DNA from: Candidatus Limnocylindrales bacterium
GTDB lineage: Bacteria > Chloroflexota > Limnocylindria > Limnocylindrales > CSP1-4
Reading direction: 5' to 3'
Assembly (NCBI GenBank): GCA_035720425.1
Contig: DASTOB010000210.1
Coordinates: 2,638-66,637 of the forward strand
Length of the DNA: 64,000 nucleotides
The position numbers were made by a program, and so were the translations under genes. Of this stretch, positions 43,386 to 60,374 are shown piece after piece (within the stretch, counting starts at the first letter, position 1; each line of letters starts with the position of its first letter). The notes below the pieces were generated by a model, which was given only the letters and a program-made list of their open reading frames with translations, was not told where the DNA came from and did not search any database.

Positions 43386-43640
43386 TGTTTCACGGACGTC
43401 ATCTCGCCGGCCTCCCGGATCCGTTCTTCGGGGAGCGACGAATCCGGCGAACGGGCCGCCAATCCCGGCCGGCCTCCCGGATCCGTTCTTCGGGGAGCGA
43501 CGAATCCGGCGAACGGGCCGCCAATCCCGGCCGGCGTCCCGGATCTGTTCTTCGTGGAGGGACGAACCCGGCCATCGGCCCGGCATCGGAGCCCGCGAAC
43601 CGCATTTCGTTCTTCCGGGAGCACCAACCACGCTTTCGGC
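43386..43640. repeat. tandem ~58-bp repeat array (2 perfect and 2 degenerate copies) in a divergent intergenic region
   Basis: GGCCTCCCGGATCCGTTCTTCGGGGAGCGACGAATCCGGCGAACGGGCCGCCAATCCCGGCC is repeated exactly twice, then followed by decayed copies. Confidence 0.7.
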
Positions 43641-44219: not shown

Positions 44220-44700
44220 GCGTGGGTGCCGTTGCTCGCGCCTCGCGCGGAGCGGCCGTGCGAATCGTCCCCATTCGTACCGGAGCCGCTAGAGCTCCTC
44301 GCCGTCGCAGTGGTCTGCCCTCATCGCCGGCCGTAAGGCGCTCGGCACCGCCTCCATTCATGTCGCCACGGGGGCCGAGTGCACAAGGATCGGCGCTCAA
44401 GATCCGGCCGTCCGCTTATTGACATAGCTGCACCGGGCGCATGAATGGGGTCGATCCGCCGACGCTCAAGCCACTGGCCGGGGCGCGGCGCGAGGCCCGG
44501 AGGCCTCTCCACGCGGCCCTTGTCGCTGCGACACGAATGGGACCGATCCGCCTGCCCGAAAACCCGACGCCAGCGCGACGCGCGCCCAACAACCCGACGC
44601 CGGGCCGATCCGCGCCCGAAAAGCCGACGCCGGGACGATCCGCCCGCCCCAAGCCCGACGCCGGGGCAGCCTGCCAGCCCGCAAGCCGGCGCGCGGACGA
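44220..44700. repeat. repeat-rich non-coding segment: CCCCATTCATG-core repeats plus ~30-bp tandem units
   Basis: The motifs CGTCCCCATTCGT, CCTCCATTCATG, CGCATGAATGGGGTCGATCCGCC and CGACACGAATGGGACCGATCCGCC recur. Tandem CCCGAAAA(C/G)CCGACGCC units sit at 44560-44690. The segment 44388-44450 is a near-exact inverted copy of 47668-47735. Confidence 0.55.
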
Positions 44701-44706
44701 CCCGAG

Positions 44707-45942
44707 CTACGCCCCGCGGTCGAGGAACAACGCCCCGGCCACGGGACGGAGACAGTGCGTCGTGCTCATCGCCTGGTGGTAGCCGCCACCGTTGAGCAGC
44801 GCGACGATGTCGCCCTCCTCGACCGGCATCATCGGGTAGTCCTCGGCGAACACGTCGCCGGCCTCGTTGATGTGGCCGGCCACCGTGACGGTCCACGCGC
44901 GCGCCGCCGCCGCGTCGCGGCACAGCACGAGCTCCTGCGCGTAGCGGTAGATGAAATACGCGTTGTTGACGTTCCAGCCGAGGTCGAGGCCGACGAACAG
45001 CACGCTCCCGCGCTGCTCGACGGTCACCACCTCGCCGATCAGGATCGCCGCGTCCTTGGTCAGGTAGTCGCCCGGCTCGCACGCGACGACGACGTCGAGA
45101 GGCCCCAGATGCCGGGTCAGCACGGCGGCCCAGGCGTCGACGTCGACCGGCGGCTCGTCGTCGCGCGCCGGACGACCGAGCCCGCCACCAACGTTCACCT
45201 CCCGCAGCGGGTGGCCGGCGTCGATGAGCCGCCGCGCCGTCGCCGCCACGCGGGCCGTCGTGCGCTCGACGTCGGCGAGCCGGTCGCCGAGCCAGCCCGA
45301 CCCAGCGTGGACGTGGACCGTGTCGACGACGAGTCCGTGGCGGGCCGCCGCGGCGAGCGCGTGGTCGAGCCGGTCGTCGCCGATCCCGAACTTGGTCGGG
45401 CGCTCGCCGCTGTACTCGAGCCCGGCGTGATACCCGACGCCGGATCCCGGGTTGACCCGAAGGCCGATCCGCGAGCCCGGCGCCCTTCGGCCGTACCGCT
45501 CGACCTGGCTGACCGCGTCGAGGTTGACGTGCACGCCGTGCTCGAGGAGGACGTCGAGGTCTCGCTCCGAGACGTTCGTTCCGGTGAAGCTGATCTCGTC
45601 GGCCCGCCAGCCATGGGCGAGCGCATGGAGCACCTCGCCCGGCGAGCACGCGTCGATACCGACCGACTCCGCGGCGCCGGGCGGCCCGAGGCCACGAAGC
45701 ACCTCGAGAACCTCCGGCTCGCGGTTCGCCTTGAGCGCGAAGCGCACGACGTGGCGCAACCCGGCGCGGCCAAGGGCGCCGTGGAGGTCGCGCACCGCCT
45801 CGGCCACCCGGGCGCGGTCGTACACGAAGAGCGGCGTCCCGTGCCGCCGGGCCAGGGCCTCCGCGTCGCGGCCGGCGATCGACAGCCGGCCGCCCACGAT
45901 CCCGAGCCCCGGCCGGACCCACCATGGGTCGGCGGTCGTCAC
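44707..45942 (-). CDS. lysA: diaminopimelate decarboxylase
   Basis: Orn/DAP/Arg decarboxylase fold with FALKAN (PLP Lys). GTG start at 45942 overlaps the upstream stop. The longer ORF to 46335 was rejected. Confidence 0.85.
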   Translation of the reverse strand: MTTADPWWVRPGLGIVGGRLSIAGRDAEALARRHGTPLFVYDRARVAEAVRDLHGALGRAGLRHVVRFALKANREPEVLEVLRGLGPPGAAESVGIDACSPGEVLHALAHGWRADEISFTGTNVSERDLDVLLEHGVHVNLDAVSQVERYGRRAPGSRIGLRVNPGSGVGYHAGLEYSGERPTKFGIGDDRLDHALAAAARHGLVVDTVHVHAGSGWLGDRLADVERTTARVAATARRLIDAGHPLREVNVGGGLGRPARDDEPPVDVDAWAAVLTRHLGPLDVVVACEPGDYLTKDAAILIGEVVTVEQRGSVLFVGLDLGWNVNNAYFIYRYAQELVLCRDAAAARAWTVTVAGHINEAGDVFAEDYPMMPVEEGDIVALLNGGGYHQAMSTTHCLRPVAGALFLDRGA

Positions 45943-46196
45943 ACGCGGGCGCGCGCCTGGCCCGATCCGGGTACCCAGCGATCCGGTCCGGGCTCGACGT
46001 CGACCCCGAGCGCCTCGAGCAGGCGGCGCGCCGCGGCGCCGACCTCGTCGACGGCGGCGTCGAACGCCTCCGAATTCCGGGCCGACGGGGCGCGGTAGCC
46101 GCTCACCTTGCGCACGAACTGGCGAGCAGCGGCCTCGATCTCGCCGGTCGTGGCGGCCGTCTCGGCGCGCCGGAGGGTCTTGATGCTGCGACACAT
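45939..46196 (-). CDS. DUF2277 family protein
   Basis: 85 aa beginning MCRSIKTLRR...EIEAAARQFVRKVSGY. Family recalled from memory. Confidence 0.55.
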   Translation of the reverse strand: MCRSIKTLRRAETAATTGEIEAAARQFVRKVSGYRAPSARNSEAFDAAVDEVGAAARRLLEALGVDVEPGPDRWVPGSGQARARV

Positions 46197-46234
46197 GAGC
46201 GCAGCGTAACGGGTATCGCGGGTACCGTATCCCG

Positions 46235-47152
46235 GTGACCGCGTCCATTCCGACCCGCCGTCGGCCCGGTCTCCGGTGGTGGGTTGTCCGGCTCGCGGCC
46301 GGCGTCGTCATCGGCCTCGTCGTCGCGCTCGCCATCGACGTCGTGCGGCTCGGCGGGCCCGAGCGCTGGTTCGCTGCGCATCGGCTGCCGCCGCCCTACC
46401 TGCCGATCGGCCGAACGATCGTCGTGGACGGCGCGCCCACCTACCTCGACTGTCGCGGCTCCGGATCGCCGACGGTCATCCTCGAGTCCGGCCTCGGCAC
46501 CGGGGCGGCGGGTTGGGGCTTCGTGCTCGACGACACCGCGGCCCTCACGCGGACGTGCACGTGGGACCGGCCCGGGATCGGCAACAGCGCTTCGATCGGG
46601 CGGCACGACGCGGCGGACGCGGCCGCGCGCCTGCGGTCGACGCTCGACGCGGCCGGCGAGCCCGGCCCGTTCATCGTCGTAGGCCACTCGCTCGGCGGCG
46701 TCTACGCGCGAGTCTTCTCGGCCGCCCACGCGGATGAGGTCGTCGGCGCCGTCCTCGTCGATCCGTACCTGCCGGACATCCATCCCGTGCGCGAGGTCGA
46801 CCTGCCGGCGGCGCTGCGCGACACGTGGCTCGCCGGTCTCGACGAGACCAACCGGCTCATCGAGGCGACCGAGGACCTCGACTGGGCGGCGACCGCCGAC
46901 CAGCTCGCGGACGCAGATCTCGGCGACCTGCCGCTCGAGCTCCTGTTCGTCGAGCAGCGCTTCCGCTGGGAAGATGCGTTCGAGCCGTACGAGGCCGCCC
47001 TCATCGCGGCCTGGCAGCCGCTCGTCCTCGGCCTGTCGGGCGACGCGCGCCTGACGATCGCGGTGAACGCCACGCACATGATCCAGTGGGACAAACCGGA
47101 CCTCGTGGTGGCCGCGATTCGGCGGCTCGTCGAGGAGGCGCGCGCAGACTGA
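46235..47152 (+). CDS. alpha/beta hydrolase
   Basis: GHSLGG nucleophile elbow. N-terminal TM/signal. Confidence 0.8.
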   Translation: MTASIPTRRRPGLRWWVVRLAAGVVIGLVVALAIDVVRLGGPERWFAAHRLPPPYLPIGRTIVVDGAPTYLDCRGSGSPTVILESGLGTGAAGWGFVLDDTAALTRTCTWDRPGIGNSASIGRHDAADAAARLRSTLDAAGEPGPFIVVGHSLGGVYARVFSAAHADEVVGAVLVDPYLPDIHPVREVDLPAALRDTWLAGLDETNRLIEATEDLDWAATADQLADADLGDLPLELLFVEQRFRWEDAFEPYEAALIAAWQPLVLGLSGDARLTIAVNATHMIQWDKPDLVVAAIRRLVEEARAD

Positions 47153-47399
47153 TGAGGCGGCGCGTGCGGACCGCTGAGGCGGCCGGCCTCGCGGTGCGGT
47201 GCGTACCCCGTCAGGATTGACTCAAGTTCCCGCCTCGCACGCTCGGCGACGCGGCGATTCGAGCAGATCCTGATGTTGGCCGGGCGTGCCGGCCCTGATT
47301 CTCATTCACGGCTGGGGAACCGGCAGGGTCCCCGGGCACGAGTCGCCGGGCGGGAGGGCCGGGCGCCGCGGTCCACGACCGTGGGGCGGTCAATTCGGG

Positions 47400-48130
47400 T
47401 CGTCTGCGCGCCGACTTGCGGGCGGGCGTATCGGCACCGGCGTCGGCCGTCGGGCGGGCGGAGCGCCCGGCGCGCTCGGCCGTCGGGCGGGCGGAGCGCC
47501 CGGGCGCCGGCCCGTCGGGCGGGCGGAGCGTTCGGGCGGGCGGAGCGCCCGGTGCGCTCGGCCGTCGGGCGCGACGATCGTCCCCATTGGTGTCGCTGCG
47601 CCAAGGCCCGCGCGCAGGGCCTCAGCGGTTCCCGCGCCGCGCCGTGCCGGCAGCTTGACCGTGGCCGGATCGGCCCCATTCATGCGCCCGGCGCGCCGAT
47701 GTGGATAAGCGGACGGCCGGATCTGGAGCGCCGATCGTTGTCCGCCCGCTCGCTCTTGCGTCATGAATGGGGGCGCTGCGGAGCGCCATATTCTTGGCGG
47801 TGGGAACAGACGCGACGACGCCGCGGAGCCCAAGCGGCTCCGGCACGAACGGGGACGATTCTCACGGCCTTTTCCCGTCTGGCGCACGGTTCGTGGAGGC
47901 GGCGGCGGGCGCGGTGCCCGGCGCTCCCTGCCCGCAGCACCGTGCCGAGCACGCCGCCTGTGCCGAGCCAACACCGCGGCCGACCCACGACCCCTGCCGA
48001 GCCACAACCCCTGCCGACCCACAACCGCGGCCGAGCTACGACCCCTGCCGAGCCACAACCCCTGCCGAGCCAACACCGCGGCCGACCCACGACCCCTGCC
48101 GAGCCACAACCCCTGCCGACCCACGACCGC
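47400..48130. repeat. gene-free repeat-rich region: 33-bp tandem GGCCGTCGGGCGGGCGGAGCGCCCGG units, CCCCATTCATG-core repeats, and 4 copies of a ~33-bp CGAGCCACAACCCCTGCCGACCCACAACCGCGGC unit
   Basis: Direct inspection. No credible ORF spans it; 47273..48907 and 47390..48157 are read-throughs of repeats. Confidence 0.55.
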
Positions 48131-48227
48131 CGCCGGCACCGCGGCCGATGGTGTCACGGTGCACCGAACGATCGGCCCCTTCGACCCGGGACGCCAGGAC
48201 CAGGGTCAGGCGGCGGCCGCCGGGGCG

Positions 48228-49370
48228 ATGCTCGGCCGCGTGACGCCTGCGACCCGCTCGCCACGCCGCCGGACCGCCCCCCGAGCCTCGATCGCCTGGG
48301 CCGTGGGGCTGAGCGTGCTCATCTCGTTCGGTGCGGCGCCCGCGTTCGCGGCGGAACCGGAGCCGACGCCGACGGCCGACCCGGCCGCGGAGCCGACGGC
48401 CGACCCGGCAGCGGAGCCGACGGCCACGCCGACGCCGACGCCGGAACCGACGCCTCCGCCGACACCCGACCCGACCCCGGAACCGACGCCTCCACCCGCG
48501 CCGACACCCGAACCGACGCCGACACCCGCACCGACGCCGACTCCCACGCCGGAGCCGCCACCTGCCCCGACCCCCTCTCCGGCACCACTGCCGCCCCCGG
48601 AGCCAACCCCTCCGCCCGCGCCCGCTCCGACGCCCGCTCCGACGTGGACGAGACCTGCGGTCGCGCCCGCCTGGCTCAACCTGTACTCGCCGACATCGTT
48701 CCTCTACCAGGACCCCAATCCGCATGCCTGCACCGCGACGGCAACGCAGATCATGCTCAACATCGTCGCGGCAACGGGCAGCGGGGGAAGCGGCTTCGCG
48801 TGGCTCCCGACGACGGACAGCGCGACCCGCGACGCCCTCCTCGCATGGGAACGCGGGAACGACACACTGCCGGCCGGTCGCGGGTCGGACCCGCACGGCT
48901 GGCGTAACGCGCTCAACGCCTTCGGTTGGGGCGGGAGCGCGCAGTACCAGGGCAACCGAGTGTACGAGGACGTCGCCTATCCGACCTTCGACGCCGCCGT
49001 CAAGGACGCGGTCCGCGCGCTCATCCTGACCGGCAAGCCGGTCGGCATCCTCGGCTGGCGCGGGCGTCACGCCCAGTTCATCACCGGCTACTACGGGCTG
49101 CGTGGCGATCCGTTTGCCCGAAACCGCCGGGGCGGGTACACGAACGCCTTTCGCATCGGCGGCTTCTACCTCACCGATCCCCTCGCGTCGTCGGGCATCG
49201 TGAATCGTCGCGTGTCGTACGGGACCCTTCGGAACTCCCGGAACGGCCGGGTGCGATTCGCCCCGTACTTCGAACGGGACAGCCGCCTCGACGACCCGTA
49301 CACGGCCGGCGCCCGTCCGTCGTGGCGAGAGTGGTACCGGCGCTACGTGGTGATCCTGCCCGTCCGCTGA
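48228..49370 (+). CDS. secreted protein with Pro/Thr-rich linker and C-terminal papain-fold Peptidase_C39_2-like domain
   Basis: Signal peptide ...AWAVGLSVLISFGAAPAFA. An (EPTPxP)n linker. Cys in ACTATATQIMLNIV and GKPVGILGWRGRHAQFITGY (G-H motif). Paralog of 58052..58831. Confidence 0.6.
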   Translation: MLGRVTPATRSPRRRTAPRASIAWAVGLSVLISFGAAPAFAAEPEPTPTADPAAEPTADPAAEPTATPTPTPEPTPPPTPDPTPEPTPPPAPTPEPTPTPAPTPTPTPEPPPAPTPSPAPLPPPEPTPPPAPAPTPAPTWTRPAVAPAWLNLYSPTSFLYQDPNPHACTATATQIMLNIVAATGSGGSGFAWLPTTDSATRDALLAWERGNDTLPAGRGSDPHGWRNALNAFGWGGSAQYQGNRVYEDVAYPTFDAAVKDAVRALILTGKPVGILGWRGRHAQFITGYYGLRGDPFARNRRGGYTNAFRIGGFYLTDPLASSGIVNRRVSYGTLRNSRNGRVRFAPYFERDSRLDDPYTAGARPSWREWYRRYVVILPVR

Positions 49371-49390
49371 CCGGCTATCGTCAGCGCTGC

Positions 49391-50770
49391 ATGGACCGCT
49401 GGCAGACGATCATCGAGCCGTTCCGGATCCACTCGGTCGAACCGATCCGCCTGACGAGCGTCGATGAGCGTGACGCCGCGCTCGAGGCGGCTGGCTGGAA
49501 CCTGTTCAACCTTCACGCCGACGACGTGCTCATCGACCTCCTGACCGACTCCGGGACCGGCGCGATGTCGCGCGACCAGTGGGCCGGGATCCAGCACGGC
49601 GACGAGTCGTACGCGGGCTCGCCGTCCTGGTTCGTCTTCCGCGACGCCGTCACGAACCTGTTCCCGTTCCGCCACGTCATACCCACCCACCAGGGTCGGG
49701 CGGCCGAGAAGATCCTGTTCAGCGTCCTCGGTGGCCCCGGCAAGGTCATCCCGAACAACACCCACTTCGACACGACCCGGGCGAACGTCGAGTTCACCGG
49801 CGCCGAGGCCGTCGACCTCGTGATCGCCGAGGGTCGGATCCCGTCGGCGGAACACCCGTTCAAGGGCAACCTGGACGTCGATGCGCTCGAGCGCCTGCTG
49901 GAGGAGCGCGCCGGCGACGTCCCGGTCGTGTTCGTGACGATCACGAACAACTCCGGCGGCGGCCAGCCGGTCTCGCTCCGCAACCTCCGCGCCGTGCGCG
50001 CGGCCTGCGACCGCCACGGCGTCCCGCTCTTCCTCGACGCGTGCCGCTTCGCCGAGAACGCGTGGTACATCCACGAGCGCGAGGAGGGCCAGCGCGATCG
50101 GCCGATTCCCGACATCGTCCGTGAGATCGCCGGGCTCGCCGACGGGATGACGATGAGCGCCAAGAAGGACGGCCTCGCGAACATCGGCGGCTGGCTCGCC
50201 CTCGACGACGACGCGCTCGCCGAGCAGTGCCGCAACCTGCTCATCCTGACCGAGGGCTTTCCGACCTACGGCGGCCTCGCCGGGCGCGACCTCGAGGCGA
50301 TCGCGCAGGGCCTGCGCGAGGTGGTCGAGGAGGACTACCTGCGCTACCGGGTCCGCTCGACGGCGTACCTCGGCGAGGCGCTCGACCGGGCCGGCGTGCC
50401 GGTCGTCAAGCCGTTCGGCGGCCACGCCGTCTACCTTGACGCGCGGGCGCTCCTGCCGCACATCCCGCCGCTCGAGTACCCGGGTCAGGCCCTCGCGATC
50501 GCCCTCTACCGCGAGGGCGGCATCCGCGGCTGCGAGATCGGGACGGTCATGTTCGGCCGCCACCCGGATGGGTCGGAAACGCCGGCCGCGATGGACCTCG
50601 TCCGACTCGCCATCCCGCGCCGGACCTACACGCAGAGCCATGTCGACTACGTCATCGAAGTCGTCACCTGGGTGGCCAGCCGGGCGGCCGACCTGCGCGG
50701 GGTGCGGATCGTCGACGAGCCGCCCGCCCTCCGCCACTTCACCGCGCGCTTCGAGTCGATCACCGGATGA
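49391..50770 (+). CDS. tnaA: tryptophanase / tyrosine phenol-lyase family beta-eliminating lyase
   Basis: 459 aa with SAKKDGLANIGG (PLP Lys). N-terminal MDRWQTIIEPFRIHSVEPI. Confidence 0.85.
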   Translation: MDRWQTIIEPFRIHSVEPIRLTSVDERDAALEAAGWNLFNLHADDVLIDLLTDSGTGAMSRDQWAGIQHGDESYAGSPSWFVFRDAVTNLFPFRHVIPTHQGRAAEKILFSVLGGPGKVIPNNTHFDTTRANVEFTGAEAVDLVIAEGRIPSAEHPFKGNLDVDALERLLEERAGDVPVVFVTITNNSGGGQPVSLRNLRAVRAACDRHGVPLFLDACRFAENAWYIHEREEGQRDRPIPDIVREIAGLADGMTMSAKKDGLANIGGWLALDDDALAEQCRNLLILTEGFPTYGGLAGRDLEAIAQGLREVVEEDYLRYRVRSTAYLGEALDRAGVPVVKPFGGHAVYLDARALLPHIPPLEYPGQALAIALYREGGIRGCEIGTVMFGRHPDGSETPAAMDLVRLAIPRRTYTQSHVDYVIEVVTWVASRAADLRGVRIVDEPPALRHFTARFESITG

Positions 50771-51216
50771 CCGGCGACGACGCCCGGGCCGTTGTCGATC
50801 GGCTTGGGCTCGCGCCGCACCCGGAGGGCGGCTGGTTCGTCGAGACGTGGCGGGCGGCGGCCATACGCGAGGGAGAGCGCCCCGTCGCGAGCGCGATCCT
50901 CTACCTGCTCGCGGCGGGCGAGCGGTCGCACTGGCACCGCGTCGACGCTGCGGAGATCTGGCAGTGGTCGGCCGGCGCGGCGCTCGAGCTGCGAATCGCA
51001 CCAGCGGACGGCGGCGGTCCGATCGAGACGATCCGGCTCGGCGGCGAGGTCGCGGCCGGCGAGCGACCGCAGGCGGTGGTCCCGGCCGGGGCGTGGCAAT
51101 CGGCCGCGCCGCTCGGCGCGTGGAGCCTCGTCGGCTGCATCGTCGCGCCGGCCTTCGAGTACGCCGGCTTCGAGCTCGCCCCGGCGGGCTGGGAGCCGGC
51201 AACCGGCTCAGGCTGA
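50767..51216 (+). CDS. cupin domain protein
   Basis: The ATGA overlap with the tnaA stop indicates translational coupling. 149 aa with an HWH-type cupin motif (ERSHWHRV). Confidence 0.55.
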   Translation: MTGDDARAVVDRLGLAPHPEGGWFVETWRAAAIREGERPVASAILYLLAAGERSHWHRVDAAEIWQWSAGAALELRIAPADGGGPIETIRLGGEVAAGERPQAVVPAGAWQSAAPLGAWSLVGCIVAPAFEYAGFELAPAGWEPATGSG

Positions 51217-51221
51217 GCGGA

Positions 51222-51878
51222 TCAGCCCCACTTCCAGTAGATCGGGCCCGTCCAGCAGTGGCCGAGGGCGGTGCACGCCGCGCCCGACAGGTCCCACGTC
51301 CGGCCCGGCACGTACGGTCCGCGGTCGATGACCGGGACGACGATCTCCGCGCCGTTGTACGGGTTCCGGAACCGGACCATCGTGCCGCACGGCAGCGAGC
51401 GGTGGGCGACGCCCATGATCGTCGTCGTGTAGGCCAGGCCGCAGGCCGTTCGCTTGCCGTAGAAACCGGGGCCGTAGAAGCTGATCTCCCGGTCGTACCG
51501 CCACGCGTTGACGAAGACCACCCGCGCCTTCGACTCAGGCTGGTCGACCGCCGCCCGATCCGGCAGGGCCGGCACGTCGAGCGGCTCGACGAGCACGGCG
51601 GACGCGTCGATCCGACCGTCCGAACGGTACGCGGGGTCGAGCGGCGGGATCGTCACCACCGTCGCCCGGGACAGGGACGCCGCGTCGACCTCGCGGAAGA
51701 GCGTGGCGTCGACCGACTCAGCGATGCCCGGTACGCTGGAACCGACCGATCCGGGGACGGCGACCATGGCGAGGGCGGCGATGACCGCCGCTCCCGCGAC
51801 GACTCTCTGAGGTCGCACGTCTCGCCGGAATCTACCAGCGCGGCCGGGCGGCCGTGGCCCGATCCGGTCACGGAGCAT
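51222..51878 (-). CDS. RlpA-like (DPBB) septal lytic transglycosylase family protein
   Basis: C-terminal double-psi beta-barrel: GLAYTTTIMGVAHRSLPCGTMVRFRNP...VVPVIDRGPY. N-terminal TM. Confidence 0.7.
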   Translation of the reverse strand: MLRDRIGPRPPGRAGRFRRDVRPQRVVAGAAVIAALAMVAVPGSVGSSVPGIAESVDATLFREVDAASLSRATVVTIPPLDPAYRSDGRIDASAVLVEPLDVPALPDRAAVDQPESKARVVFVNAWRYDREISFYGPGFYGKRTACGLAYTTTIMGVAHRSLPCGTMVRFRNPYNGAEIVVPVIDRGPYVPGRTWDLSGAACTALGHCWTGPIYWKWG

Positions 51879-56616: not shown

Positions 56617-56620
<4 letters not shown>

Positions 56621-57996
56621 GCACCCCCACGCCGCCGTCCCGCCCGGTCCGGCTCGACGTCGTCGTCCTCCTGCCCAGGTCGAGCACGGGGACGTCCGTC
56701 CTGGCGCGAACCGCGGACGGGCTCCGGCTGCCGACCGTCACGGCCGAGGCGTCGGACGAGGAGCCGAGCCTGTCGGCGCTGGCCGACGCGGTCGCCGGGC
56801 TGCTCGGGAGCGAGCCGGTTCCCCTCCGCATCGTCCCGCTTGATGCTGTCGGGGCGGGCCGCAGCACGACGTACCTGCTCGAGCTCGCGCCGATCGAGGG
56901 ACTCGTGCCTCCGGCCGGGTTCGACTGGATCGAGGCTGGTACCGTCGAACCGGCCATCGATCCGGAGCCGGCCGGGGCCACGGTCAGGCGCTGGGTGGAC
57001 GAGCGCCGAAACGGGCCCAGCCCGCGACGTCCGGCGTGGTCGCATCCCGGCTGGCTCGAGCGCGCCGGCGCCTGGATGACGAACCGGATGGCACGAGCCG
57101 GACTCACGGCGTCCGGGACGCCCCGCCTGCACTACCTGTGGGGCCTGTCGGCCGTCGTCCGGGCCGACACGGATCGCGGCGCGGCGTTCCTCAAGGCCTG
57201 CGCCACCGTCTTTCGGACCGAACCGCGGCTCACGGCGACCCTGGCCGGCGCGTCGCCGGACCTCCTGCCGGAGGTCATCGCGACGAGCGACGAGGACTGC
57301 TGGCTGCTCATGGGCGACCTCGGCGGCACGCTCCTCGGCAACGAGCCGGTCGATCGGTGGGCCGACGGGCTCGATGCCCTCGCGACGATCCAGCGGCGCT
57401 GGGTCGGCCGTGACGGCGAGCTGGCGGCCGCCGGTTTCGAGGATCGCGGCCTCGAGGCCCTCGCCCGCCGCCTGCCGGCCCTGATCGACGATCCGGCCGT
57501 CGGGAGTCTCGACGCGGACGCCCGGCGGAGCCTGGCGACAGCCCTGCCGCGCCTGATCGACGCGTGTCATGCACTCGCCGAGCTCGGCCCTCCGGCGACC
57601 GTCGTGCACGGCGACTTCCACCCGTGGAACGTCGCCCGACGGGACGGGCAGATGGTCGTGTTCGACTGGTCCGACGCGGCGATCGGGCATCCGTTCCTCG
57701 ACCTCGTGACGTGGGTCGGTCGCACGCCGGACGTCGCGGCCCGGCGGCGGATGGTCGACCGCTACGTCGCCCACTGGTCGGACTTCGTGCCGGCGAGCCG
57801 GGCGGACGAGGCGGTGCGGCTCGCCCTGCCCCTCGGGGCGATCCGCCAGGTCGAGAGCTATCGACGCATCCTCGACTCGCTCGACCCGGACGACCACTGG
57901 GACCTCGCCCTCGCCGGCGCGAGCTACGCGCGGCGCACGCTGGCGCTCCTCCGGGACGGGCTCGAGGCGCCGCTCGGGCGCGACGGCGGCGCGTGA
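56617..57996 (+). CDS. phosphotransferase (APH / choline-kinase-like) family protein
   Basis: The GTG overlaps the metH stop (GTGA). Brenner motif HGDFHPWNV plus DWSDA. Confidence 0.7.
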
Positions 57997-58051: not shown

Positions 58052-58831
58052 TTGAATCCGGGTCGTAGATTCCTGCTCGTGACGCACCGTCGACGCGGAC
58101 GCCTGGGGCGCCTCGCGATCGCTCTCCTCCTGGCGGCCCAGGCGATCGTCGTCGCGGGACCCGTTCCGGCCGGCGCGGCGACGGCCTTTCGACTCGACGT
58201 GTCGACGCCGACCGACTTCGTGGCCCAGACGAACTTCGTCCAGTGCGTCGGGGCGAGCATGCAGATGATGCTCAACATGATCGAGGCGGAGGACGACCGC
58301 ACGGCGGCCGAACAGCTCCGGCTCCAGGACATCGCGCGCTACTACAGCGGCTCGCGGCCGGACGGCCGGCAGCGCCAGGGAGCAAGCGTCCGTGGCTGGT
58401 CGGCCGGGCTCAACCTCGAGGGAGCCGGACCGTATCGGCTGGTCGGCACGACGACGATCGAGGAGGCGATGCGGGTCGCGGCCACGGCGATCAGCCAGAC
58501 CGGCAAGCCGGTGGGCCTGCTCGTCTGGCGCGGACGGCACGCCTGGGTCATGAGCGGGTTCACGGCGACCGCGGATCCCTCGACGACGGCGGACTTCACC
58601 GTCACCGAGGCGATCGTCCTCGACCCGCTCTACCCGCACGGCTCGAAGACATGGGGACCCAGCCCCAAACCGCGCGAGGCGCTATCGATCAGCGAACTCG
58701 GGCGCCAGTTCGTGCAGCGCCGCACGGGCCAGAGCGCTCGGAGCTGGCTTTCCTCATTCGCCGGTCAGTACGTGATGGTCGTCCCGATGCGAGCGATGCT
58801 CGATCGGCACGTGGGGCTGCTCCCGGCCTGA
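58052..58831 (+). CDS. secreted papain-fold Peptidase_C39_2-like protein (paralog of 48228..49370)
   Basis: Signal peptide LAIALLLAAQAIVVAGPVPAGAA. QCVGASMQMMLNMI and GKPVGLLVWRGRHAWVMSGF align to the same motifs in the paralog. Confidence 0.6.
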   Translation: MNPGRRFLLVTHRRRGRLGRLAIALLLAAQAIVVAGPVPAGAATAFRLDVSTPTDFVAQTNFVQCVGASMQMMLNMIEAEDDRTAAEQLRLQDIARYYSGSRPDGRQRQGASVRGWSAGLNLEGAGPYRLVGTTTIEEAMRVAATAISQTGKPVGLLVWRGRHAWVMSGFTATADPSTTADFTVTEAIVLDPLYPHGSKTWGPSPKPREALSISELGRQFVQRRTGQSARSWLSSFAGQYVMVVPMRAMLDRHVGLLPA

Positions 58832-58844
58832 TCGATCGCCTCGG

Positions 58845-60374
58845 TCACTGCGCCGACGCGCCTCCCGCGAGCGCCGCGGCGACGCCGGCGACGGCGGCGT
58901 CCGACAGGGCGCCGACGCTGCCGAGCGCGACGAGCCGGGCGGGCGCCAGGCGGGCGGCCTCCATTGCAGCCTCCGGTGGCAATGGGCCGGTTGGCGGGAC
59001 GAGCAGGAGCGGACCACCGCGCGGGCCGGCCGACAGGGCATCCGGGAAGTTCAGGCCGGTGGCGAGGTCGACGAACGGCGCGCCGGCCTCGTACAGCGCC
59101 GCGGATACGGCCGCCGCGGTCGCGTAGCGCGTGGCGCCGGCGAGCCGATCGACGTCGGCGGAATAGGCGCGGAGTGCCTCGAGCGTCGCGTCGGACACGA
59201 CGCTCGGGCCGCCGAGGACGCGGATGCGCGCCGGCTGGAGCCTGGTCAGTTCGGTGGCGACCGCCTCCGGCACGCCGTCGCCGGGCACGAGGAGCACGGG
59301 GCCGCCGAGTCGCGCCCCGGCGGCCGCGCCGACGAGCGCGTCCGGGAAGTTCATGCCGGTCGCCACGAAGGCGATCGGCACGCCCGGCGCGAACGTTGCC
59401 GCAGAGGCTGCCGCCGCCGTCTCGTAGCGCGTCGCACCGGCGATCCGGGTCACGGTCGGGGCATACGCCGCGAGCGCGGTGAGCACGTCGTCACCGACGA
59501 CGGACGGTCCGCCGAGCACGACGATGGATGCGGGCTGGAGGCGGACGAGCTCCGCCGCGACCGACTCGCTCAGCCCGGTCGCGCCGACGAGCAGGACCGG
59601 CCCTCCGAGCCGCGCGGCCGCCGGGCCGGCGGCGAGGGCATCGGGAAAGTCGAGCCCGGTCGCGACGAAGACGACCGGCACGCCGGTCCCGAACGTCGCA
59701 GCGGAGACGGCCGCGCCGGTTGCGAAGCGGTCCGGTCCGGCGAGGCGCTCGCCGCTGGCGATGACGAGTCCGGGGTCGAGGTAGATGCGCAGGATGTCCG
59801 CCATCGGCATCCCCGCCAGGGCGCAGGCCCGGACGCCGCGCTGGGCGAGCCGGGTGCGGATCGAGGACAGGTCCGCGCCGCACGTGTCGGCCGTACCCGG
59901 GCCGTATCCGGACAGGAAGAACGTTCCGCTCTTGCGGAGCGTGAGCGGCCACGTGGCGGTGACCGCGGCGAGGTGGTTCGCGTGCGGCGTCCGGGCGGGG
60001 TCGTACTTCTGGTCGTTCGTGTCGTCGCGCACGTGGTAGCACGCACCCGTCGGGGTGACGTAGGCGGTGCGCGGGCGCATGAGGTAGTACCAGGCGTACT
60101 GCTTGACCGCGATCGCCCCCGCCTTCAGCGCCTCCGCCGGATAGGTCGACGGCCACTCCCAGGCGAGGACGTTCTCGACGTAGGCGCGGAACGGGACCGT
60201 GTCGACCGTGCCGCTGGCAACCCGCAGGACGCGGATCTCGGGCGGGACGCTGAACGACGTCGGCCACGCCGGGCAGGGGCCGCCGGGCGCGGCGACGACC
60301 GGGTGGGCGGATCCGGCGCCCGCGGCGGCGACGAGGAGCGCGGCGAGCAGGACGAGGACGGCACGGCGAGGCAT
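58845..60374 (-). CDS. secreted SpoIID/LytB-domain protein with three cell-wall-binding (CWB2) repeats
   Basis: Signal peptide. N-terminal SpoIID-like region (VENVLAWEWP...AVKQYAWYY). 3 repeats of ...GAT(R/D)(Y/F)(E/A)T(A/G)AA...G(V/A)P(V/I)(V/A)FVATG(L/M)(D/N)FPDAL... Confidence 0.65.
   Translation of the reverse strand: MPRRAVLVLLAALLVAAAGAGSAHPVVAAPGGPCPAWPTSFSVPPEIRVLRVASGTVDTVPFRAYVENVLAWEWPSTYPAEALKAGAIAVKQYAWYYLMRPRTAYVTPTGACYHVRDDTNDQKYDPARTPHANHLAAVTATWPLTLRKSGTFFLSGYGPGTADTCGADLSSIRTRLAQRGVRACALAGMPMADILRIYLDPGLVIASGERLAGPDRFATGAAVSAATFGTGVPVVFVATGLDFPDALAAGPAAARLGGPVLLVGATGLSESVAAELVRLQPASIVVLGGPSVVGDDVLTALAAYAPTVTRIAGATRYETAAAASAATFAPGVPIAFVATGMNFPDALVGAAAGARLGGPVLLVPGDGVPEAVATELTRLQPARIRVLGGPSVVSDATLEALRAYSADVDRLAGATRYATAAAVSAALYEAGAPFVDLATGLNFPDALSAGPRGGPLLLVPPTGPLPPEAAMEAARLAPARLVALGSVGALSDAAVAGVAAALAGGASAQ

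Follow-up and report, generated by a model that had tools for sequence, protein, structure and literature searches.

Two paralogous exported proteins of a Limnocylindrales bacterium probably represent an unnamed family of papain-fold cysteine hydrolases related to Peptidase_C39_2

We analysed a stretch of 64,000 nucleotides from Candidatus Limnocylindrales bacterium (GenBank assembly GCA_035720425.1, contig DASTOB010000210.1, positions 2,638 to 66,637; hereafter the window), with a G+C content of about 73%. It encodes two proteins, p1 and p2, which we consider to be Sec-exported papain-fold (clan CA) cysteine hydrolases of an unnamed, Limnocylindria-centred family related to the Peptidase_C39_2 family (PF13529); we would give this reading a probability of roughly three in four. 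An original prediction, made from the sequence alone, had described the two proteins as secreted, C39_2-like paralogues with a candidate Cys/His dyad and had proposed that they form an amidase or peptidase family acting on the cell envelope or on extracellular substrates. The paralogy is borne out. The two proteins resemble each other far beyond chance, since BLASTP aligns them with E=5e-15 (31% identity over 140 aa) and a hidden Markov model (HMM) of the family, run against the six-frame translation of the whole 64 kb, picks out exactly two open reading frames (ORFs), p1 and p2. The Cys and His motifs quoted in the original prediction are also present verbatim in both ORFs, as QDPNPHACTATATQIMLNI and GKPVGILGWRGRHAQFITGY in p1 and as QTNFVQCVGASMQMMLNM and GKPVGLLVWRGRHAWVMSGF in p2. 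The ATG from which p1 is numbered here (48228) is an in-frame start within a longer ORF (47763-49370), and the identical public protein (P0001; 403 aa), annotated as 'hypothetical protein, Candidatus Limnocylindrales bacterium', starts 23 codons further upstream at GTG 48159. The public record of p2 (P0121; 250 aa) is nine residues shorter than our version and identical over 97% of the query. Feature coordinates are collected in Table 1.

Both proteins open with an Arg-rich, signal-like N-terminus, recognized by inspection and in agreement with the signal peptides announced earlier. Six Arg and no acidic residue lie ahead of the hydrophobic 15-mer IAWAVGLSVLISFGA in p1 (Kyte-Doolittle hydropathy, KD, 1.99), and seven Arg precede the 15-mer LAIALLLAAQAIVVA in p2 (KD 2.66). 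In p1, the predicted signal peptide leads into the long Pro/Thr linker that had already been noticed, with 48 P, 22 T, 15 A and 9 E per 100 aa, encoded by DNA made of short tandem repeats (48349-48557); similar linkers are present in 35 of 76 close homologues. Across the window, GC skew is most negative at 48001-50000 (-0.129), which coincides with the C-rich codons of this linker. In p2, the domain begins only a few residues after the predicted signal peptide, and neither protein has space for a pro-peptide between the signal peptide or linker and the catalytic domain. Each protein has exactly one Cys (Cys168 in p1, Cys65 in p2).

The family to which these proteins belong is anonymous. In a collection of 5.8 billion sequences, the p1 domain retrieved 563 relatives and p2 retrieved 3,278, all of them unnamed and none carrying a precomputed Pfam domain. 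A two-branch profile, compared exhaustively with 1.84 billion cluster representatives (50% identity), matched 787 clusters at E<=1e-3, of which 172 also reached E<=1e-30, and 403 matching loci were found in reference genomes sampled at one genome per species. Nearly all of the best 80 of these 403 loci come from Limnocylindrales, 'uncultured Chloroflexia' or Chloroflexota metagenome-assembled genomes (MAGs). Two of the 80 fall outside these groups, on short contigs assigned to Acidimicrobiales and Verrucomicrobiia, perhaps through errors of binning. An N-terminal hydrophobic segment was seen in 73 of 76 p1-like, 118 of 118 p2-like and 89 of 105 distant members with intact N-termini, and export, judged by sequence, appears to be a trait of the whole family.

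Conservation was assessed on 302 full-length domains, including 64 distant representatives of 50% clusters, with the numbering of the p1 domain. C30 and H143, which correspond to Cys168 and His281 of p1, are invariant in all 302 domains, as are G141 and G149, and N40 is conserved at about 100%. Q23 is conserved in 98% of the domains, and in 91% of the distant representatives, where Glu is the alternative; for D179, in the D-P motif, the corresponding values are 99% and 94%, with Ser as the alternative. Loss of the conserved Cys in homologues, an outcome that would have told against the original prediction, was never observed, even among the distant representatives, and 296 of 301 domains contain a single Cys. 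Being alone and invariant in an exported protein, this Cys has the appearance of a nucleophile; it cannot belong to a disulfide. The family also has conserved elements of its own, namely an M-L-N motif with the invariant Asn40 and a helical insert, G-S-D-P-x-G-W-R-N-A-L-N-x-x-G-W-G, to which the p1 branch adds a C-terminal D-S-x-x-D-D-P-Y region. Many homologues are annotated as 231-aa proteins starting at a conserved MNLF. At one such locus (L002, 5533-6696), the ORF extends upstream of MNLF through another Pro/Thr linker; the 231-aa versions are gene calls cut short, and the likely reason is either the low complexity of the linker or indels in assemblies made from long reads. Two members carry three CWB2 wall-binding repeats before the domain (P0256 and P0308), and some homologues carry subtilisin-like/fn3, PKD or ankyrin modules.

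Comparison with profile libraries (Pfam, 2025 copy; NCBIfam, 2026) places this family next to a known one. PF13529, whose gathering threshold is 24 bits, did not match p1 or p2 at E<=1; a sub-threshold match of p2 to DUF6211 (E=0.039) was dismissed as noise. However, when 67 diverse family members were scanned singly, 20 matched PF13529 and three matched Peptidase_C70; support for any other enzymatic family was absent. The PF13529 matches span positions ~6-143 of the 143-position profile, that is, nearly its whole length, with scores of 25.4 bits for P0338, which passes the threshold, 23.5 bits for P0339 and 12-22 bits for other members. On P0338, the match starts two residues before the Gln (Q78) and ends just past D218-P219. 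P0338, which passes the PF13529 threshold, shares 40% identity with p2 over 226 residues (E=2e-45); a chain of homology thereby connects p1 and p2 to the curated family, and the putative catalytic residues keep the same order throughout. The C39_2-like character claimed earlier is thus upheld through the diverse members, whereas the Pfam search suggested at that time reached no threshold when p1 and p2 were used directly. On sequence evidence, the family is a distant relative of PF13529 at the edge of detection, just outside the Pfam boundary, and p1 and p2 are homologues, but not members by the Pfam rule. NlpC/P60 (PF00877) and CHAP (PF05257) were both absent from the matches of the 67 members at E<=1, and these identities were rejected.

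The C39-like peptidases of PF13529, such as that of B. anthracis (used as an HHpred template, PMC3314691) or the N5 domain of actinophage LysA endolysins, share with our family the residue order Gln, Cys, His, Asp and a stand-alone, single-domain organization; p1 and p2 each consist of a predicted signal peptide, with or without linker, and one domain, without fusion to an ABC transporter. Neither in the window nor on six related contigs is an ABC transporter gene adjacent to p1, p2 or their homologues. PF13529 proteins have been characterized as peptidases of a single domain that bear additional 'decorations' and lack an established function (PMC10318531). Unlike them, p1, p2 and most of their relatives score below the threshold, possess their own M-L-N motif and helical insert, and are restricted almost entirely to Chloroflexota MAGs.

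The predicted structure points to the same superfamily. A first AlphaFold2 model, based on an alignment of 32 sequences, had a predicted local distance difference test score (pLDDT) of 73.7, and its top five PDB matches were all of clan CA, none of them significant. A second model of the p1 domain, for which trimmed distant representatives were added to give 56 sequences, reached a pLDDT of 96.7 and a predicted template modelling score (pTM) of 0.93. In this model, a long helix (30-45) begins with C30, a strand (143-151) begins with H143, and D179 directly follows the neighbouring strand (174-178). The arrangement is, in the prediction, that of papain, with the Cys at the N-terminus of a helix, the His on the sheet and the Cys preceding the His, as is characteristic of clan CA. 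The top 50 PDB matches found with Foldseek are all clan CA cysteine peptidases: papain, actinidin and cathepsins (C1), UfSP (C78), IdeS/IdeC/Mac-1 (C66), SpeB and interpain (C10) and a double-glycine C39 domain. These matches have modest scores (best E ~8e-4, template modelling (TM) scores of 0.27-0.45 normalised to the query, identity of 8-15%), so that the predicted fold class is clear and a solved close relative is lacking. The structural check proposed with the original prediction therefore came out in favour of a papain-like fold. Our family resembles papain (C1), streptopain/interpain (C10) and IdeS (C66) in fold class, predicted catalytic layout and secretion, and differs from them in its low structural and sequence similarity, in the lack of a pro-domain and in the lack of any Pfam match to these families. 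Among predicted viral structures, the best-superposing one is the endolysin of Gordonia phage OneUp (probability 0.99, TM 0.45/0.53, root-mean-square deviation 4.6 Å over 205 columns), and the lowest E-value in the viral library belongs to a cyanophage 'putative peptidoglycan-binding protein'.

From the conserved residues and the model, we infer an extracellular reaction in which an amide bond is cleaved by thiol-imidazole catalysis. Cleavage of the signal peptide would place the catalytic domain outside the membrane, in p1 on a spacer of ~100 Pro/Thr-rich residues and in p2 almost directly behind the cleavage site. The sole Cys (C168 in p1, C65 in p2), at the N-terminus of a helix, would then attack the amide carbonyl; the His on the facing beta-strand (H281/H163) would activate it and would itself be oriented by the Asp of the D-P motif (D317/D191), with the Gln located 6-7 residues before the Cys forming the oxyanion hole. 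In such a scheme, p2 could be the conserved 'housekeeping' copy and p1 a lineage-specific extra copy endowed with a long spacer.

As for the substrate, we tentatively favour a peptide or amide bond of the cell wall, either in the peptidoglycan stem or in the cross-bridge, which would make these proteins wall-remodelling hydrolases; we place this somewhat short of an even chance. It is favoured because of the CWB2 fusions, the endolysin structural match, the literature on C39-like lysins and the missing pro-peptide. Wall hydrolases are typically made without a pro-peptide, and papain- and SpeB-type enzymes are zymogens. C39-like domains are a recognized cysteine-protease module (N5) of LysA endolysins of actinophages and mycobacteriophages (PMC3314691); the catalytic domains recorded for lysins of phages with Gram-positive hosts include C39_2 (PMC8223927). 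The envelope role put forward in the original prediction can thus be retained in part: an exported papain-like family is well supported, and the link to the envelope now comes from the CWB2 fusions and the endolysin match, not from gene context.

Several observations weigh against our interpretation. Direct scans of p1 and p2 against Pfam, NCBIfam and PHROGs gave no usable match, the thresholds of Pfam and NCBIfam being missed, and searches of PDB chains by sequence or profile (with a single sequence, two family profiles and the members P0326 and P0269) yielded only chance-level similarity. No solved structure is closely related (TM <=0.45 to the query), and the endolysin analogy draws solely on predicted structures and annotation. 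The literature consulted gives no firmly established natural substrate for members of PF13529 (PMC10318531). With regard to a wall role, no wall-synthesis gene is a conserved neighbour among the related loci, and the CWB2 fusions would fit a surface-protein protease similar to Cwp84 equally well. Cwp84 of Clostridioides difficile is a CWB2-bearing, papain-like C1A protease with a pro-peptide, and it matures or sheds surface or S-layer proteins. P0256 and P0308 are similar to it in combining three CWB2 repeats with a papain-fold domain, whereas p1 and p2 have no such repeats and no sequence relationship to Cwp84 was detected.

The Cwp84 comparison leads to a broader alternative, in which the family would consist of secreted or wall-anchored proteases that cut proteins, whether to mature or shed those of the surface or S-layer or to digest external protein as a nutrient. 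The best PDB matches are indeed true proteases (papain, cathepsins, IdeS/IdeC, SpeB, interpain, UfSP), homologues carry CWB2 triplets or subtilisin-like/fn3, PKD or ankyrin modules, and the window itself encodes a CWB2 protein, which could be a substrate-type protein. However, broad-specificity secreted papain-like proteases usually need the pro-peptide that p1 and p2 lack, the best-superposing viral match is an endolysin, and the family is small and compact, like the wall hydrolases of the C39_2, CHAP and NlpC/P60 types; we view protein cleavage, the main alternative, as possible, although rather unlikely. A papain-like scaffold can also be put to non-peptidase use, such as acyl transfer or transamidation (as in BtrH or phytochelatin synthase-type enzymes) or a glycosidase-like activity. 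Papain-fold families include acyltransferases and deamidases (PMC10318531), one of our family members has a faint match to Phytochelatin (E=0.16), and a C39-like protein from an archaeon, bearing a Q-C-H motif, was recently reported to hydrolyse p-nitrophenyl (pNP)-beta-galactoside and not peptides (PMC13642728). That enzyme is reported to have a very low activity and an Asn in place of the Asp (PMC13642728), whereas our family conserves all four residues (Gln, Cys, His and Asp) that typify hydrolytic peptidases and its supported Pfam links lead to the C39_2 and C70 peptidases alone, which makes such chemistry very unlikely here. The chances of a classical C39 peptidase, cutting double-glycine leaders of bacteriocins, are close to nil. 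PF13529 is a sister family of PF03412 (PMC10318531), and the clan CA core is shared with a double-glycine peptidase domain, at the level of a weak structural match (6mpz_D, TMt 0.57, E=0.028). Yet the classical domains are reduced, cytoplasmic N-terminal domains of ABC exporters (PMC10318531), while p1 and p2 are larger, stand-alone proteins with predicted signal peptides and no adjacent ABC transporter, and no PF03412 match was obtained among the 67 members; this architecture refutes a leader-peptidase identity.

A last alternative concerns the genes around p1, whose layout is as originally described: a gene of the tryptophanase/tyrosine-phenol-lyase family begins 20 nt past the p1 stop, its own stop overlaps the start of a Cupin_5 gene by ATGA (50767-50770), an RlpA-like gene lies nearby, and p2 is convergent with a gene for a SpoIID/CWB2 protein. 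The lyase passes the tryptophanase subfamily model of NCBIfam at 669 bits and remains below the equivalog cutoffs both for TnaA (527 vs 750 and 480 vs 826) and for tyrosine phenol-lyase (520 vs 721), so that these models do not discriminate between Trp and Tyr as its substrate. One could imagine that p1, the lyase and the cupin form an operon, in which, for example, p1 would free extracellular aromatic amino acids or peptides and the lyase would degrade them. The common strand, the short gap, the ATGA overlap and the lack of a terminator-like site between p1 and the lyase would suit such an arrangement. Against it, no lyase, cupin, RlpA-like or SpoIID/CWB2 gene occurs within 5 kb at any of the best 80 of the 403 related loci, three long contigs bearing p1 homologues of 57-59% identity have neighbours unrelated to those of the window, and p1 carries an export signal while the lyase shows no signal peptide. 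In addition, on a related contig (L006, 144-1538) the Cupin_5 gene starts 36 nt after an abhydrolase gene with nothing between them, which indicates that p1 and the lyase were inserted. A functional operon is therefore highly improbable and, in practice, excluded by synteny, and the earlier suggestion that the context formed by the tnaA-cupin pair and the SpoIID/CWB2 and RlpA-like genes indicates an envelope role has to be abandoned.

Table 1. Features of p1, p2 and neighbouring genes, in window coordinates
Feature	Position	Strand	Details
p1 gene	48228..49370	+	380 aa from ATG 48228 to TGA 49368-49370; family HMM E=9e-90
p1 predicted Sec-type signal peptide	48228..48350	+	residues 1-41; likely cleavage between AFA and AE, by inspection
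p1 Pro/Thr-rich low-complexity linker	48351..48650	+	residues 42-141
p1 papain-fold catalytic domain (predicted)	48666..49367	+	residues ~147-380, ~235 residues; AlphaFold2 and Foldseek
p1 Gln161 (domain Q23), candidate oxyanion-hole residue	48708..48710	+	7 residues before Cys
p1 Cys168 (domain C30), candidate nucleophile	48729..48731	+	invariant 302/302; sole Cys
p1 His281 (domain H143), candidate general base	49068..49070	+	invariant 302/302
p1 Asp317 (domain D179), candidate third triad residue	49176..49178	+	within conserved D-P-L motif
p2 gene	58052..58831	+	259 aa from TTG 58052; family HMM E=1e-55
p2 predicted signal peptide	58052..58177	+	residues 1-42; likely cleavage between AGA and A, by inspection
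p2 Gln59...Cys65 motif	58226..58246	+	QTNFVQC; Cys65 only Cys
p2 His163	58538..58540	+	in WRGRHAW
p2 Asp191	58622..58624	+	in LDPLY
Tryptophanase/tyrosine-phenol-lyase family gene	49391..50770	+	Pfam Beta_elim_lyase E=1.7e-74
RlpA-like DPBB gene	51222-~51800	-	
APH-family phosphotransferase gene	~56620-57996		between metH and p2
SpoIID + 3xCWB2 wall protein gene	58845..60374	-	Pfam; convergent with p2

The comparison with the related contig also clarifies the history of the locus. The backbone of L006 is collinear with the window in the order abhydrolase, Cupin_5, DPBB, HhH-GPD, MetH and p2, with products that are 48-74% identical, and a second contig (L004) agrees partly with this backbone. 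From this collinearity, p2 is part of a conserved chromosomal backbone, and the segment comprising a repeat-rich 1-kb spacer, p1 and the lyase gene looks like a lineage-specific insertion (3.6 kb, window 47153-50766 compared with L006). The inserted lyase gene nonetheless shares its ATGA overlap with the resident cupin gene. On L006, the p2 orthologue directly follows metH and the APH-family gene is absent; by the same comparison, the latter gene is a second insertion ahead of p2. Downstream of the p2 orthologue, both L004 and L006 have a luciferase-like gene in place of the SpoIID/CWB2 gene. A scan of the region around p1 (47100-51400) found no promoter-like site and terminator-like sites at background level. 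When a recurrent neighbour was sought at the 80 loci, nothing convincing emerged (MMPL was present at 15 of them); an apparent cluster of HypF-like neighbours was set aside, as it seems to be joined by low-complexity Pro/Arg sequence. One copy of the family gene was present at 74 loci and two copies at five, so that tandem duplication is not a general feature.

CWB2 repeats are best known from the S-layer and Cwp proteins of Clostridioides. They are found here in the SpoIID-domain protein of a member of the Chloroflexota, as well as in P0256 and P0308, which hints that Limnocylindria anchor envelope proteins via CWB2.

The DNA around p1 is rich in repeats. About ten tandem copies of the 17-nt unit TGCCGAGCCACAACCCC, also visible with periods of 34 and 51, occupy positions 47961-48135, in apparently non-coding DNA, and end 24 nt before GTG 48159 of p1; they could be a regulatory array or a slippage-prone repeat. 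Further upstream, an inverted repeat of ~500 nt (arms 44254-44740 and 47357-47869, 73% identity over 518 nt, with a 166-nt core of 77-81%) encloses 2.6 kb containing a decarboxylase-like gene (44707-46335, minus strand) and an alpha/beta-hydrolase gene (46235-47152, plus strand). Each arm has its own tandem sub-repeats of 30-33 nt (44543-44665 and 47418-47538). This inverted repeat may be a dispersed intergenic element, or its arms may delimit a segment that is mobile or invertible. At 43406-43629, a 62-nt unit is repeated in tandem in 2.7-3.5 copies, two of which are identical. An Rfam scan of 43000-64000 detected no RNA family, and the inverted-repeat arms in that interval were unmatched.

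Taken as an unnamed, Limnocylindria-centred branch beside PF13529, with its own insert and M-L-N motif, the family extends a poorly characterized C39_2 branch of the papain superfamily. It would not be surprising from a mechanistic point of view, as uncharacterized secreted papain-like hydrolases are common. Its interest lies in a confident prediction of fold and active site for a family without a name in Pfam or NCBIfam, which helps to annotate an abundant uncultured lineage. A far-reaching extension, which we consider distinctly unlikely, is that the family is a main extracellular cell-envelope hydrolase of Limnocylindria, an abundant uncultured class of soil and freshwater Chloroflexota. 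If true, it would take the place, in this lineage, of the usual NlpC/P60 or CHAP-type wall endopeptidases, or would process CWB2-anchored envelope proteins in the manner of Cwp84, and its helical insert would define a new solution for substrate binding on the papain scaffold. Limnocylindria and other Chloroflexota are common soil organisms with a cell envelope that has hardly been studied, and an exported family with members fused to CWB2 repeats may offer a concrete handle on that envelope.

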